A stretch of DNA of 64,000 nucleotides from Lama glama (Eukaryota), in the NCBI GenBank assembly GCA_028534125.1, contig CM052816.1:16494001-16558000 (forward strand). Direction: 5' to 3'. Of this stretch, positions 9,817 to 52,000 are shown piece after piece. Below the pieces are notes generated by a model that was not told the DNA's origin, searched no databases, and saw only the letters and a program-made list of their open reading frames with translations. The position numbers and the translations under genes were made by a program. The first letter of the stretch is position 1. Every line of letters begins with the position of its first letter.

Positions 9817-9921
9817 CTGGGTAACAAGAGGCTCCAACAGTCTTTCAACTGCCAAAGTCCTGATCTCTAAACTTTTGGGATCCCATTTGAAGTTTATGTT
9901 GCCTGCGTGGACAGCAGTCAT
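9817..9921 (-). CDS. CTNNA1: Catenin alpha-1, first coding exon (exon 2 spans 9817-9923 with 2 nt of 5'UTR), codons 1-35
   Basis: Translates MTAVHAGNINFKWDPKSLEIRTLAVERLLEPLVTQ, the alpha-E-catenin N-terminus. Acceptor TTTCAG with AG at 9925-9924, ATG at 9921-9919, donor CAG|GTAAGA with GT at 9816-9815. Confidence 0.98.
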
Positions 9922-11718
9922 TTCTGAAAGAGAAACAAAAACCTCGTCAGGCAAATATCAAACACAAACATGCTAATACATAACAAATCTTCTCCTAGTT
10001 AAGGACTTTTATACTAGGAAAGTGACATTCACCACAAGATAAAAAATTCTTACTAGCCTACACATTAGGGACTAATAATTCTTAGAATCGCTTATACTTA
10101 AGATTTTGAGTTTATAAACATTAGGGGTGTTACAAGAGGGCATTCCCAAGCACATTTGAGCTTTTCTCTTTGGACTTCCCTAGAACCAAGAAACTGTCAC
10201 CTCCAGTTTTTCCATACTGACTTAGAATCAGCATGAAAAGGTAAAGTAAATGAAGGCTAATACAGAAGATCCTAGTTTTTCTTCCTCCACAACATTTATA
10301 TAGTACAATATTTCTAAAAGGTATACACTCCACTTCATTTTTTGATGGATTCTTAGGGAACATCTTGTCTTACTATATTGAAACATAATGCTTAAGGTCG
10401 GCTGCCTTCTGTACCTACAGCTATTATCACTAATAGCCAGAAGCAATTTCCAGTTGCACTTAGTCAAATATCACTGTATCAGTGTCAAGGTAAACTTCCA
10501 TTAGACAGAGGCCATAAGAGTAAGGGGAAAGACTTCAACCAAAATATCAAGCAGTTGGTGTTTGCTTCTATAAGTAGTGCCTTAAAGAAAAAAAAAGAAA
10601 AACAGAAGTGTGTCCTTGAGGTAAACAGTAACATAAAATTTCCAGACAACAAACTGTTGATAGAAATATAAAACCTTTTTTTAAAGGGTACATTCTTACG
10701 AAGGAGAAATTCTACTTCTTGATTCTTATTCTAAAGGAGAAATTAAGGTATGTGTAAAAACTTGGATACAATGACATTCCCAACAGCACTGTACACAATC
10801 ATTAAAAACTGTAAACTAAATTTCAAACAACAGATCACTGAATAAATCACATAACCAACCACACAATGGGATACTATGCTGCTCTTAAAAAACAATGTTG
10901 ACAAAATTTAGAAAAAACACTAAACAGTGTTCTCACTGCCCATCTTTATTTCTACTAAATATTATTTCCTTCAGGGGAAAAAAAATGGGTGGGGCTTATT
11001 CCAGGTCTGATATATACTATTGTGCAGAAAGCAAGGAAAAGCACAGAGACTAACAAGATCATATCAAAAAAATACAAGAACCAAGGGCTCCAAGTTCAGT
11101 AAAGAATAAGTGATGACTGTAACTATATATTAGACAGACAGATAGCCTATGACCATAGGGATCCTCACAAGAAAAGAAAGGGAGTAGGAAAGGAATTTCT
11201 TTACCATGAATGTAGAATAGAATTAGAAAATGACCATTTGTTAATACCAGTGTAATAACTGATTGAGGCAAGGATTACCCATGGACATTAACACCATTAG
11301 GTGACAGGTTATTTATTAGAAAACAGCAGATTTGTAAGGTGCCAAAGTATCACCTGACAGGTTGGTTACTTACTAATTACAAGGGGGGCAGGCTAAACCT
11401 TTACAAGGGTGAGATCTAATGGTCACCCCCTTAAATAACTAAATTTAACATTGCTAATAATGAAGCTCTGATATTATATGCCTAATATGATGAAATATGA
11501 AGTGCTCTACACTCCCTAAAAAGTATTCTTGATGGAAAAAACGTTTTAAATGTGTTTTTCATGAGCCTCGGTATTACTATAAACTGAGCAAAGTTAGTTG
11601 TGCAACAGCCAAGTTAAAATTAAATGTTTAACCTGAGTCTAATGAAGCCTCTGCATAGGGATTCTAAATCTTTCTCAATGCCATGGACCCCTTTAGCAGT
11701 CTACTACACCCTATCGAC

Positions 11719-12208
11719 CAATGTTGTCCAACAGAAATAATACAAGCCACCTATATAATTATTTTCTAGTAGTCACGTTAAAAAAGTAAAGATAAACTGA
11801 TGAAATTAATTTCAACAATATATTTTATTTAAAATAGTATATCCAAAATATTATTTCAATATGTAATCAGTATTTTTTTCTATTAGAGATGTTTTACATA
11901 AGTACATGATGACATGACTAAGCAGTCATCACTGCTGGTTGGGGAGCCAAAGCTGAGGGCGTTGGGCGTGCTGAGGCTGCGGCCACCAACCCTGGTGGTG
12001 AAGGGGACATCATCCTCCCGGGGGCGGGGCTCGTCCTCACTGGGCGAGGCCATCAGGCAGATGTATGTGTGCAGCTGGATGAGGAGCCTTTACATAAGAT
12101 TGAAAATCCGAGATGTGTTTTAAGCTCATTTAAATTCAGAAAAGCCACATTTCAAGCACTCAATAGCCACATGTGGCTAATGGCTTCTATATTGATTGCA
12201 CAGTGCAG
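11719..12208 (+). mobile_element. MER33-like hAT-Charlie MITE interrupted by the NPRL3 fragment
   Basis: TGTCCAACAGAAATAATACAAGCCAC...AGCCACATTTCAAGCACTCAATAGCCACATGTGGCTA. Degenerate 8-bp TSD CTATCGAC (11711) / CTATAGAT (12209). Confidence 0.8.
11925..12088 (-). pseudogene. NPRL3: NPRL3 mRNA-derived internal fragment (no poly(A) tail)
   Basis: Minus strand translates [55 protein letters not shown], nearly identical to NPRL3 (GATOR1 subunit) as recalled. GC/CpG-rich patch in AT-rich DNA, flanked by TTTACATAAG direct repeats at 11893-11902 and 12089-12098. Confidence 0.9.
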
Positions 12209-13609
12209 CTATAGATCCTTTCTCAGAATGCTTTTTAAGATGCATGAATTATAATTCAAATAATTACAAATAAAACACGTATACTGAAAATTAGTTATCA
12301 AAGTACTTTACAAATGTGTGATGCAGTTAATACACATGCTCTTTATTAACATACTAAATGACATGTCAAGAAGTCTGATAACTACTTCAAAGTAATAATG
12401 AACATGCACTTTTTTCAAGATATAATCACAGCATACATGAAAAGCACTGAGATTCCTACTGATGGAACAAAGTTACAGGTTCAGTTGAAAACTGGAATTT
12501 GTTTTCTACATTAATAGAAGGAAACACTAAATTCCTGTTAATAGTAACAAAGACAATACTTTTCCAATCCAAATTCAGTACAGGTTAAGAAACCCTAAAC
12601 CTAGACTGAATTTCAAGTTTATATGATGTATAGAAGTTTATAGGGGATACAGAAAGAACAGGTTAAGTAACACCATGAGGAAACAGACAAATCCAGAATG
12701 TAAGGCATTCTACAGGACAATGTGGCCTTAACTTTTCAAAAAGCAGGCGGCTGGTGGGGGGGGGGTATTCTAGACTAAAAGACTTAGGAGACAAAAGAAA
12801 CTAATGCAATACATGTACCTTGTTTGGATCCTGGTTTGAAACAAACAACTATTAAGAGATCTGTAGGAAAACTGGCAAAATTTTAATACTAAATATTACA
12901 TGATATTATGGAATTACTGCTCAGTTTCACAGGTGTGATAATGAAAATGTGGCTATGTAGAAAAATGAGTACTTTTAGGAGACACATGGTGAAATATTCA
13001 GGGGTGAAATATCAAGATGACTGCAACTTTCAAATTCAGCAAAAGTACAAACACATAAACAGAGAGATCAAGGAATTATGAAAAAAAACTCATAACTATT
13101 AAACCTAGATCAAGGACATATGTATGGGTGAGTGTATATCTGAAATTTCTCATTTTAAAAATGGGAGAAATGTTGTAGAGGTTTATGAGAAAATGTTAAA
13201 AAAAATACTACTGAATATGGAAAGGGGATTTCTAAAACAATATGAAGTATAACTGCAGGAGCATATATAAAAGAAAATATTAACAATATTACCTTTAAGA
13301 GTTAGGGATGAGTGGTAATGTTCTTTTTTCTTAACTGTATTTTCTGATATTATAAAATTATAAAAATAACTTTCTAAATACCTGTGTAATAAAAAAAGTA
13401 GAATCTTTATTTTACAAACTATAAGGACAATATAATCAAAAGGCATGCTTGATCATCACTTAACCACTCTAAACTTGTTTCCTCATTTATAAAATAAGAT
13501 TATCATTTACTTAAAAGAAAAAAAAAGACTATCATTACCTTTAGAGAGCTTCTGTGAAGATTAAACAAACTATGATCCACTGAATAAGTTCTATGCTAAT
13601 ATGAATAAA

Positions 13610-32030: not shown

Positions 32031-33262
32031 AAAGTGGATAAAAAATATTTTTTAACCTGACATTAGTGAAAAAGGGTTAACTGGGCAAAATGTATAATTT
32101 CTTCACCCATTCCTCTTGTAAAACAAAATAACACATCCTAATCAATTTGTTTTACAAATTCGTACTTCCTTAAAGTAACCTACACCTGTACAATCTTTAA
32201 AAATCACTGCTAAACAAAATACCCTCATTGAAATGCCTATCCGGTTGCAACAATACAATGATGTAATCATTTCCTTCAACATAAATATAAAATGTCCTTA
32301 ATTTAGTTGGAGACTTAACATAACTTACTCTTTCCTAAATTATTCTAAGTTCTGTACAAAACAAACACAAAGAACATCGCAAAGACGCAGGAAGACATAA
32401 AAGGGTGTCAATCCTGGATTTGAGCCAACTGCCGCCTGCATTACTGGGAAGCCATTCCTGCCAAGCCAAGCTTAGGCATTCAGTCAACATTTCTCCCAAC
32501 AAGTGCTTCACACAAGCACACTTTTTTAAAGTCAACAAAAAATATTCCAACGCCACTCGTGAAAACCGGGACTAATCAGAGCCAAGTGCGTCCAATCAAC
32601 CAGCACAAGAAGTCTTGAATAATTTCACAACAAAAGTTAACATGGTACACGCCGAAAGTCTACACGGGCGTGGCGCCTTCCCCGCCAGTCAGAGAAAAGG
32701 ACACTCAAACTTTCACATTCGCTGGGGCAGGGACTGCCGGGGTGCGGACCCAGCGAACTTCGGTCCACCTGACCGGGAAGTTTCGGGAGCGGGGGAGCGA
32801 GGGGGGAGACCACAGAAACCACAGTCACTTCACTGGAAAACTCAACTCCCAAACACACTCGCACCGGGAACAACGCGCAGACTCTTCCCTCAAGTAGGGC
32901 GGCCGAAGGGGACCAGCGCGGGGCTGGCGCGCGCACCGAGTCCACTTGAACAAAGTTTAGAAACCGAGAGAAACTTTCCCGAGAGGAAGCGCCGCGGCGG
33001 CGCGGGGCCTGCCGCTAACTCTCCTCCAGCCGCCGCGGCCCCCCACCTTCCCGAGCGCCAGGAAGCGCCGGCCCCGCCTGCCCGACCAGAGCCCAGGACC
33101 AGGGCCCAGGCCCGGGGCCCCGCAGGAAAAGCGGGCGGGAGGCCGCACAGGCGCCGGCCTGGGGCCCGATTCCGAGCGGGGTCGTGGAGGAAACCGTGCC
33201 CCGCCCGTCCGAGGAGCCCCTCGGCCCTGCTGAGGGGCCCCCACCTGCCTGAAGAGAATTAC

Positions 33263-33355
33263 CTGCGGCGAGCGGAGAAAGCGCAGGAAGATTCCCGAAG
33301 CCCGAAGCCGACGACCGCCGCTTTGTCTTCCCCTGTCCGGCTCCGAGGAGGAAAT
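33263..33355 (-). other. CTNNA1: CTNNA1 non-coding exon 1 (5'UTR); TSS approximate
   Basis: Minus strand reads CCATTTCCTCCTCGGAGCCGGAC...GACAAAGC...CGCCGCAG|GTAATT, resembling the human CTNNA1 5'UTR as recalled. Donor GT at 33262-33261. Inr-like CCATTTC with A at 33355. Confidence 0.85.
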
Positions 33356-33371
33356 GGGCCGCCTGGCGCCC

Positions 33372-33431
33372 CCGCCCTGGGCCCGCCCCCTGCCCGCGGC
33401 CCCCGCCCTGAGGCCTGGGCCCCGCCCGCCC
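33372..33431 (-). promoter_or_regulatory. Cluster of five GC boxes (Sp/KLF) in a TATA-less core promoter; minus strand is G4-capable
   Basis: CCGCCC at 33372, 33383, 33403, 33422 and 33426, directly upstream of the Inr-like site. Confidence 0.75.
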
Positions 33432-33689
33432 TTCCCAGTACCTCCCTCCGGAGCGCTCTTCCCGGAGCCTCCCGCTGCCGTCCGGCTTTCCAGGTCCTTG
33501 CTTTGGGGGCGAGCCCCGCACCGAGAGCCTGGCGACTCCAGGCCCAGACCCCCAAAAGGACCTCTCGTTCTCGGCCCCTTACCCTAGAGTCACTTCATCC
33601 CAGGCCCCTAGTGAGTACTCAGGCTGGGAGTCAGCCCCCGAGAGGAAGGAGGAGCGCTGACTCCTGGAACAGCCCTCCAGCTGGGAACG

Positions 33690-33722
33690 CAGGTGAGTCA
33701 CCGCTCCGAGCACAGGTGAGTC
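33690..33722. promoter_or_regulatory. Paired CAGGTG E-boxes with an overlapping AP-1 site
   Basis: CAGGTGAGTC at 33690-33699 and 33713-33722. TGAGTCA at 33694-33700. Confidence 0.5.
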
Positions 33723-34188
33723 TCTTGCCCGCTCAGGCCCCACCCCTGGCTGGTGCTGCAGAGTCCTGGGCATGCTCCTCTGAGGAGTGCTACAGGTGTT
33801 TCCAAGTAACGGGCTTCCAGAAAAGTGCTCTAGGCCCACCTTCTGGTTTATAGTAGGATAAAGTGAGGCCTCACCGCTTGAGGCAAAGTGGAACTAGAAT
33901 CCGACTCTAGAGATCGCAGAATGTGCAATGGAAGCCCTCCTGGAAATTACCGAACACGGTCTGCCACTTGACAGTTGGGGAAACCGAGGGCACCCGATGG
34001 AGGACAAGAGGCATGTCACAGCAGCATCCCCTCCTGAGATTGATTGCTCCCCGCTCTACACACACTCACAGACACAAATTTGAAGAACCTGACTTCTATC
34101 CTTATCCCTCTGGCCATTTAGGGTATTTCATTCCCACTTGTCCTTCCTTATCTTCCTGGTTAATGCTCTCCAAAAAACTACAAAATTA

Positions 34189-49062: not shown

Positions 49063-52000
49063 TGTGTCCCATAAATCTTGTTGGCCAAGTTCTATTTTAG
49101 CATGCAGGTATAAATAAAATTATTCAATGAGATAATATCAAAAGAGCTCAAAGTGTACTGACAGGCACCATCATCTCATTAATGAGATGAATATCTTTAG
49201 GATGTGACTTGGGTTTAGGGGGGAAAAGTGATAGACAACCACAGTGTGGTATTTTTAGGCATGTAGGTGAGGCAGGCACCCACATGTGCCACCACATCCC
49301 TCTGAACAGCAAAGACAGCTCTCACTTCTCTTGGGCTGGGAGAGGGTGGGCTGAGATGACCTGGAAGTGCTTCCTCACTGTCAATGTCCTTGAGAGTCTT
49401 TGGAGCAAGCCCCTCACTCCACCTCCAAATTCAATACTTGGCAAAGCAGCTGCCAGCAAGTGGCCTAGGGGGTCAAGTTCCACCTCTCTGGTCAGTTAGC
49501 CTTGGCACTGAGATGGACAGGAACATGCCCAGTCCTGGCAGCTGGACCCCCTAAAATAGGCAACCACAAAGACCAGTACTGGCCAGGAGTCTGCATGTCT
49601 TTTGCACGCAAGAAATGTCACCACCTCCCTCAGGGACAGGCCTGGGTGGGGGTTGTCACTGGGTGGGTGAACACCCACTGGTCTTCTCAGTCTATTTAGC
49701 AGTCAGGGTAAAAATAACACCAGCCGCATCATTTTCCAAAATTAAGGGCGATGCTATAGCAAATGTATGCAGATGTGTACAGACACAGATGGGAACAAGT
49801 GTATTTAATTGTAAATGAGTCAGAACGGAGCAAATGAGATTTCCCTTATATTTGGGTTCCAAAAATCACAGAGAAAATGTGCCTGAGGCAGAAACAAACC
49901 AAAAAAAAACCCAACAACAACAACAAAAAAACAGGGGTAGGTTATTGATGCAGAAGCCACATGGGAGGGAACCTTTGGCATCTAGAGCCTGGGGTGGTTG
50001 CGGTCTTCTCTGGGGGTTATGAAAGTGCCCTGGCTCCAGAAGCCCAAGCACTAACGGAGGAACACAGGCACAGATGGCAGGACCCACGGTACCTCAGTCT
50101 CATTTGACCTGTAGGTGCCAGAGAAAGTGGGGAAAGGAAGGGAGGGCTGTAATGGACTGTCCCCAAGGAGGGAGCCAAAAGCTCGCTTTTGTGACCTCAG
50201 GGAAACAAGCTGAGGCAGAGAAAAACATCCCTGCCTAGCTCCATGTGGCCAGAGAGAAAGGAATGACAACAGAATACTTCTTGCTTGGAAAGCACCATTT
50301 CTCCTCGACAGCTTTAGGGAAGGCACTGAGTAGAGTGCCAGGCTGTTGGTAGATGTTCAGTAAATACTAGAAGAAGGAAAAGACAGAGAGAGGATGGAAG
50401 GAAGGGAAAATATGTCCTCCTGCAAGTCCCTCCCATTCTGCAGACTGAAGTGATGCTGGAGGAAAGAGCCTCGGAAGCCAGAAGGCAGACTGCCAGTGGA
50501 AAAGGCCTAGGCTTCAACAGACAAGAGTTTGCCCTTATCAGGGTCCAGGGGAATATGGGGGATGGGCTGGAAAGTGAGGCACATCTATCCTGCCAGACTT
50601 CCTACCTCCGTAAACTCATCTCCTCCACAGGCAGCAGTCTGGAATTCACATCTACCCCCTGCGCCTGAACAACTGTAATTTTCGCTCCACAGAGAACAGA
50701 AGAGATTGGTTTCACCACAGCCAGTGAGCTATCATTAAGGGCAGAAACCTGACAGGCAAGTTAGGAAGCTTTGATCTGGGCCACTTCGGAGCTCAGCACC
50801 TCAAGAAATAAATGCCTGCAAGTAAATGAATATATGAAGGAAGCATGCAGTAATGAATGAACACAACAAAGACCCTTTCACCACCCCAAAACGATCTCAT
50901 TCTGTGGTTTGAGCCCTCTACTTCTCCCTCCCCAGGCTTGTTTCCTCTGTGTCCTGTTGAGTCTGTCTCCCAACCTTGAGGAGCAGCAAACCCAGCTTTT
51001 TTCCTCTGGTCCAGTTCCCTGGCAGCAGGATTCCAGGAAGGCACGGAGCACAAAGGCTCCTCTTGGGGAAAGGGCAAAGGGAGCTTTCATCTACCGCCAG
51101 CCTGCATTCTTTGTCCATCACTTTTGCAGTACTTGCATTCTCACCACAGAAAGCCCAGAGGGCTAGGATGGCCTTCTGGACTTTTGACCCAAGCCTCACC
51201 TCACATCCACCCTCCTAACTCCCCCATCTCCACTCTCCCCCTGCCCCACTCCCAGGATTTCAGCCTTGAAGAAAGCTAATACTGTGTGTCTGGTGGTCTG
51301 CAGTCAGCTCCAAGGAGGGTTCTGAGTGCCACAGACCCAGGGGAGCATATGTCTCAGCTCTGCAGGTCCCCCGAGCCACTCCTGCTAGTTGCCAGCAGAT
51401 ACAGAAGCAAAAGAGGAAACTGAAGAAATGCCGCACAGCATCACCCAGCGCAGCTGTGAGCAGCCCAGCACTGTCACTGAAGCTCCAGTCTGCCACATGC
51501 CAGCCTGGTGGAAAGGTTACTTAAAATGAAGTCAAGGAGAGCTGAAGACCAGCTGCAAGCAGAGGCCTGAGTCTGGGGTTCACAGGCTCTGTTTCAACAC
51601 TGGCTTCCTACAAAAGATCAGTGCCCAAGCTCTGGCTACTTTCTGTAACCTCCCTTCCCTTGCCCTGCCTTTGCCTTTTGTGTCTGACTCTATATTACGT
51701 GCTGTGTTCTACTTTTTTTAGACCTTCCATCTTCTTTCCTCTGTTTTTCTTTTTTTTCTTCCTTCTCCACCTTTTCCTCACTTGCTCCATTTGCTCAACA
51801 CTATAGTTTATGAAGCTCTTTCAGACATGATGAGTTCAGTGGCATATGTGATAGATCAGGGACTGTGACATATACCAAACTAGGCAATCAGAAGGCAGGT
51901 TTTGAAAAGATGGAGAAACAGACATTGACGCAGAAAAGAGACATTATTGTTAATGTAATAACTACCGGAGCTATACCAAAGAGTTCTCCCTTGTAGACGT

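Follow-up and report, generated by a model that had tools for sequence, protein, structure and literature searches.

A tail-less, spliced NPRL3 fragment in the llama CTNNA1 locus

A 64,000-nt stretch of the Lama glama genome (the window) carries, within an old repeat of the CTNNA1 locus, a 164-nt piece of spliced NPRL3 sequence that is truncated at both ends and lacks a poly(A) tail. Its origin through an RNA or cDNA intermediate is strongly supported by comparison with the donor gene. The anatomy of its junctions makes it probable that a spliced NPRL3 cDNA was captured at a chromosome break and sealed by alternative end joining.

The NPRL3 fragment and its splice junction

DNA and protein searches matched the patch at 11925-12088 on the minus strand to the genome's own NPRL3, residues 401-455. 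The patch stands out by its GC content, which is 0.58-0.70 inside it versus 0.15-0.40 in adjacent bins, and 158/164 nt are identical to the joined NPRL3 exons. An earlier note, made from the letters of the window alone, had described an unbroken minus-strand frame encoding a 55-aa peptide and had recognized it as NPRL3 around residues 400-455. Both statements were borne out: the peptide matched human NPRL3 401-455 with an E value of 1.7e-30, and the genome's own NPRL3 matched 150 nt of the patch at 96% identity. A Pfam scan of the 55-aa peptide returned 0 families.

Two exons of the donor gene contribute to the patch. Positions 11939..12088 (−) correspond to the last 150 nt of an upstream exon (source G000:C10:26451343-26451492; 96% identity, with all 6 differences at CpG sites), and positions 11925..11938 (−) to the first 14 nt of the following exon (source starting at G000:C10:26452207; 14/14 identical, and unlike the start of the intron). 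In the gene, a 714-bp intron separates the two exons, with a GT directly after the upstream exon and an AG just before the downstream one. The insert skips this GT-AG intron, with the junction between 11939 and 11938, inside a Thr codon; no slide of the junction is possible, so the intron was removed exactly. The earlier note had placed an exon junction at this very codon, crossed by 14 nt, and had proposed as a check that an RNA-derived piece be contiguous in the mRNA and split in the gene. Indeed, two exons that lie 714 bp apart in the gene are joined in the insert.

Searches of the genome for further copies of these NPRL3 exons by DNA (2/2 candidates), by protein (2/2), and with the downstream exon (1/1) returned only the insert or the gene itself among the top candidates scored in this fragmented assembly of 1,072,352 contigs. 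Because the intron was removed exactly and no other spliced NPRL3 copy was found in these searches, an RNA or cDNA intermediate is strongly supported.

Two weak PF03666 (NPR3) profile hits, on C27 and C5, were considered as possible copies and rejected, since both are low-complexity stretches of Lys, Arg, and Ser and neither matched the NPRL3 locus by tblastn. The sequence behind the weak score on C5 (G000:C5:51406273-51406545, minus strand) is a Lys/Ser-rich, coding-like stretch that resembles an exon or copy of an unrelated gene.

The host site in CTNNA1

The start-codon exon of CTNNA1 was located at 9817..9923 (−), and the next exon matches catenin alpha-1 with an E value of 1.7e-28. The NPRL3 fragment has the same orientation as CTNNA1 and lies about 2 kb upstream of the ATG exon. 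A CpG island at ~32.6-33.8 kb (32650-33800 of the window), with a donor-like site near 33262 (−), is likely the CTNNA1 promoter and non-coding first exon. Because this island likely holds the first exon, the insert likely lies within CTNNA1 intron 1; the earlier assignment to CTNNA1 thus holds, and its "intron 1" is likely. Six acceptor-like AGs, with only weak donor-like sites, were seen in or near the insert when exonization into CTNNA1 was considered. Outside the island, a GC content of 60% or more is also reached in isolated 100-nt segments at 49451, 51151, 51301, and 60501.

The insert splits an old high-copy repeat (11715..12215, ends approximate), a putative MER33 by the name used in the earlier note, the left arm of which gave 40 non-self matches at 74-81% identity. 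Both arms were adjacent in 24/48 fetched loci of this repeat, and when duplicates and rows without an anchor were dropped, these 24 two-arm loci yielded 20 distinct copies for the analysis of spacing. The span across the site had a median of 31 nt in the 20 paralogues; at the insertion site it is 17 nt if the empty site held one copy of the flanking repeat, or 24 nt if only part of the left copy is native, and one paralogue in 20 is as short as 24 nt. The site is hence 7-14 nt shorter than the median paralogous copy. Such a short span would reflect either an older deletion that preceded a true duplication, or bases lost at the break, with the flanking repeat being partly filler. The empty allele was not found: flank searches of the genome returned only the self match at full identity, and a 24-nt flank pattern gave 0 matches in metagenome contigs. 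One paralogous copy of the host repeat, on G000:C7 near 64609200, carries a ~130-bp SINE in the same T-rich spacer, hinting that this spacer attracts insertions.

Junction anatomy and routes of insertion

The earlier note had reported 10-bp direct repeats on both sides of the patch, and the two copies (11893..11902 and 12089..12098, plus strand) are indeed exact and form a candidate target-site duplication (TSD). The 5′ junction is flush, and base 12089 of the right copy is shared with the NPRL3 exon (1-nt microhomology). The 164-bp piece was likewise as described, but the repeats enclose 186 bp rather than the piece alone, a 22-nt filler at 11903-11924 having been overlooked. No poly(A) tail, poly(A) signal, or 3′UTR is present, only the 22 nt of mixed filler between the NPRL3 piece and the repeat; this agrees with the earlier account and, together with the exact loss of the intron, supports its view of an RNA-templated insertion that probably was not primed from poly(A). 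A direct repeat this long and flush with such boundaries was obtained in 8 of 20,000 random placements. The repeat thus appears to be beyond chance, and may be a true target duplication or partly filler.

Read on the plus strand, the filler (11903..11924) opens with 4-5 nt that copy the flanking repeat. An inverted stretch of NPRL3 comes next, then a further 4 nt from the repeat, and last 2 nt without an assigned source. The inverted piece, a 12-mer at 11907..11918, corresponds to nt 8-19 of the downstream exon. Seven of its nt are also present in the main piece, and 5 lie past the end of that piece; both the 60-kb NPRL3 locus and the 64-kb window contain this 12-mer a single time. In tests designed after the pattern had been seen, none of ~200,000 random 22-mers from the window had a donor match as good as that of the filler, and 534 of ~200,000 contained a split copy of the flanking repeat of the kind found here. 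Since the NPRL3 mRNA has a 5-nt tandem repeat at the breakpoint, the last 5 nt of the 12-mer could be a slippage product, and they do not prove a longer donor. To judge by its bases, the filler is the footprint expected of templated end joining. Twin priming was considered and rejected, because it would give the reverse of the arrangement found here, with the two NPRL3 pieces touching by their RNA 3′ ends. Across 11914-11929, the filler and the end of the insert can fold, on either strand, into a hairpin of 6 bp with a loop of 4 nt, a possible snap-back intermediate.

The target site was examined for traces of L1 endonuclease and of priming on the mRNA. In the sense of the element, the repeat starts AT/CTTA, with no TT/AAAA endonuclease site at its start, and the target does not fit the TT/WAAAAWW consensus. 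An L1-type nick site, TTTT/A, is present on the correct strand at 11895/11896; such motifs occur twice per strand in 200 nt of flank. When the RNA past the breakpoint was compared with the target over 24 combinations of register and primer end, 0-3 terminal bases paired, and the repeat end at offset 0 gave 0. Further away, there is weak pairing of the left flank at 11881-11894 with the stretch of NPRL3 mRNA at +24 to +37 from the breakpoint, made up of 9 Watson-Crick pairs, 4 wobble pairs, and 1 mismatch; this match, with 8/9 bases, was spotted after the fact and had P values of 0.02-0.07 under three nulls. A seemingly strong flank-mRNA pairing for a 20-nt primer ending at 11895, reached by 0.4% of nulls, proved less striking when fairer 30-nt nulls reached it in 2-7%, and is retained as a lead. 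In one minimum-energy fold of a 120-nt RNA piece, the breakpoint falls at the edge of a stem and an internal loop, although such folding is unreliable for mRNA.

These features are most readily explained by capture of a cDNA at a break. An NPRL3 mRNA would likely have been reverse-transcribed in a germ-line or early-embryo cell, and a chromosome break in CTNNA1 would likely have been patched with a fragment of the cDNA. That capture took place at a break and in one event we propose with moderate confidence, deducing the break from the anatomy of the junctions. The filler was likely written by alternative end joining, in repeated cycles of annealing, extension, and release between the break ends and the cDNA end, as in SD-MMEJ; the repetition of such cycles is suggested, again with moderate confidence, by analogy with that system. 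L1 ORF2p is the most likely reverse transcriptase, and Pol theta, which has been reported to reverse-transcribe RNA (PMC8195485), is a possible one. The 10-bp repeat would have come from a staggered break or would have been made in part by the same templated synthesis.

Capture at a break is supported by the short direct and inverted repeats of nearby sequence in the filler, as SD-MMEJ predicts (PMC5728401), by the 1-nt microhomology at the 5′ junction, by a flanking repeat that does not start with AAAA and RNA past the breakpoint that pairs at no more than 3 terminal bases, and by a site shorter than its paralogues, which fits a microdeletion at the break. Against it, the 10-bp flanking repeat is atypical, class 2 insertions being defined without TSDs (PMC5110952), TTTT/A is found at 11895/11896 on the correct strand, though the motif is common here, and the weak match at +24 to +37 would be in keeping with internal priming.

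The earlier note had named internal priming and cDNA capture at a break side by side. Because the breakpoint shows no complementarity and the filler is templated, capture at a break fits better, and internal priming by L1 ORF2p appears unlikely. On that explanation, which would make the insert a tailless retropseudogene, a nicked or staggered target end started cDNA synthesis at an internal position of the NPRL3 mRNA. The repeat would then be a genuine TSD, and the filler would be left over from false starts at the end where priming occurred. Indeed, the 10-bp repeat falls in the range of 8-30 nt reported for such elements (PMC5322556), the filler sits at the end where first-strand cDNA would start, and TTTT/A is in place at 11895/11896. 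The pairing at +24 to +37 could also be enlisted, but it is weak, lies 23 nt from the end of the insert, and was found after the fact. Staggered breaks can be used for internal priming without an endonuclease site (PMC5402677). Against this route, its defining feature, 2-18 nt of complementarity at the 3′ end of the element, is absent, the target does not match TT/WAAAAWW, and 22 nt of filler exceed the 15-nt gap allowed by Noll et al. (PMC5322556).

Rather unlikely, too, is a history in which an ordinary 5′-truncated processed pseudogene was inserted and a later deletion took its 3′ part and tail, with the repair of the deletion writing the filler. The inverted 12-mer would allow a donor longer by 5 nt or more, templated filler is no less expected where a deletion is repaired, and non-canonical inserts can arise through later variants (PMC12350158). 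Moreover, a perfect TT/AAAA is found on the element strand at 12123-12118, 33 nt upstream of the 5′ junction. However, two events are required at one site, and no remnant of the 3′UTR or of a run of A has survived. In addition, either the nick would have to be non-consensus and the deletion stop precisely at the repeat, or the TSD would have to measure 33 nt, at the limit of the lengths reported.

We consider it quite improbable that the two machineries acted in sequence. In such a hybrid pathway, L1 would have nicked TTTT/A at 11895 and primed in the NPRL3 mRNA through the +24 to +37 match, and Pol-theta-like template switching would have rebuilt the priming junction; the 10-bp "TSD" would then have been synthesized, not cut. 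If this were true, some of the tail-less, "TSD"-bearing inserts of mammalian genomes would be misclassified.

A copy made at the DNA level from a spliced NPRL3 pseudogene, since lost or unassembled, is very improbable. It would account for the missing intron, the missing tail, and the repair-type junctions without new reverse transcription, and the assembly, in which top candidates were scored, is fragmented (1,072,352 contigs); however, no such pseudogene was found, the weak NPR3 profile hits on C27 and C5 being low-complexity sequence.

The reality of the insert was assessed in public sequencing data. Among the 24 runs listed, 20 contained 0.95-0.99 of the words sampled from 11300-12700; as the list puts the best-matching runs first, it says nothing on fixation. 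A genome that lacked the insert would be expected to contain at most about 0.855 of these words, as 199/1371 depend on the insert, and the P value for such a genome reaching 0.95 is 2e-4. With 8 rows of possible source material removed, 12 rows remained, from 11 samples, 3 organism labels, and 5 studies (3 of them without a flagged row). It is accordingly exceedingly improbable that the insert is a chimera of the assembly or stems from contaminating RNA, cDNA, or human DNA, given these 20 runs, the 6 CpG sites at which the insert differs from the present gene, and the non-human residues D419 and T433 (E and A in human) that insert and genome's gene have in common. The doubts raised in the earlier note, namely a piece lying within one exon, a missing NPRL3 match, or an assembly artefact at the junctions, found no counterpart in these data: the piece spans two exons, NPRL3 is matched, and independent public runs contain the words of the insert.

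Relation to known systems, age, and significance

Events of this class have been published before (Ono 2015, Onozawa and Aplan 2016, Noll 2015), and the insert is a clean but ordinary example. Tail-less spliced fragments of Pcnt and Inadl were captured at Cas9 breaks in mouse zygotes (Ono 2015, PMC4516963), and the same report ascribes a natural truncated insertion with a 10-bp TSD to a break. As in the zygote captures described there, the NPRL3 insert is an internal fragment of spliced mRNA, truncated at both ends, without poly(A), and with short microhomology. In contrast to them, it is a natural germ-line fossil for which the break is deduced, it spans one splice junction, and one of its ends carries complex templated filler.

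The insert also resembles the class 2 templated insertions of Onozawa and Aplan (2016, PMC5110952) in its distant template, the lack of a tail and poly(A) signal, and the combination of filler and microhomology; its size of 186 bp compares with a median of 191 bp for experimental class 2 insertions in that report. Class 2 insertions are, however, defined there without a TSD, whereas the insert has a 10-bp flanking repeat that is a candidate TSD. By analogy, it would work like a class 2 or RMDR patch; given that the repeat may be a true TSD, we do not count it as a member of that class.

With the tailless retropseudogenes of Noll et al. (2015, PMC5322556), among which mRNA forms truncated at both 5′ and 3′ ends are reported to be numerous, the insert shares the truncated 3′ end, the missing A tail, and a flanking repeat within 8-30 nt. 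It differs from those described in having no complementarity between target and RNA at its 3′ end, no TT/WAAAAWW, and 22 nt of filler with an inverted piece. The inserts of SD-MMEJ are assembled in several rounds out of direct and inverted copies of adjacent sequence (PMC5728401). The filler is alike in its length of tens of bases and in drawing on direct and inverted repeats of sequence no more than 30 nt away from the junction; unlike in the Drosophila plasmid assays of that work, one template here is the end of a captured cDNA. As a spliced, 5′-truncated copy of a cellular mRNA with a flanking repeat, the insert is similar to a class 1 L1 processed pseudogene, but it lacks poly(A), 3′UTR, and a consensus endonuclease site at the start of the repeat. 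Among 1,019 human genomes, 15.7% of mobile-element insertions were reported as non-canonical, and 66.4% of those were without tails (PMC12350158). A literature search found no paper on an NPRL3 pseudogene in alpaca, though published retrocopy tables could list the locus.

The six differences between insert and gene allow its age to be gauged. All are CpG transitions; at 4 of the sites the CpG is intact in the gene, and at the other 2 it is intact in the insert. The insert has thus lost 4/11 CpGs and the gene 2, with 0/142 other sites changed, and the 7 CpGs still present in the insert agree with the several intact CpGs noted earlier. Of the 4, the one at 12080 agrees with the human residue, and it may be the gene rather than the insert that changed there. 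At residue 404, the genome's gene has Val, and the human protein and the insert have Ile. Assuming that CpGs decay at 15-30 times the background rate, the best estimate of neutral divergence is 0.8-1.6% (about 1%), with 95% limits of 0.2-3.8%. All 17 SINE copies sampled lie further from their majority sequence, at 4-21%, a spread that includes any CpG sites. At mammalian substitution rates, the insert would be some millions of years old. Hence, with 6 CpG transitions and ~1% neutral divergence, the insert is old on the population scale; the "fairly recent" of the earlier note is apt for such a divergence but not in the sense of a new polymorphism. Two of the changes alter residues, and the overall pattern appears compatible with neutral decay. 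No function is evident, and the insert is predicted to be neutral and decaying.

The insert alone settles no open question. It is a clean natural example of a spliced mRNA that entered the germ line without poly(A), with a filler that can be read almost base by base. It may serve as a presence/absence marker for the lineage, and as one case in a wider study of the joining of tail-less inserts.
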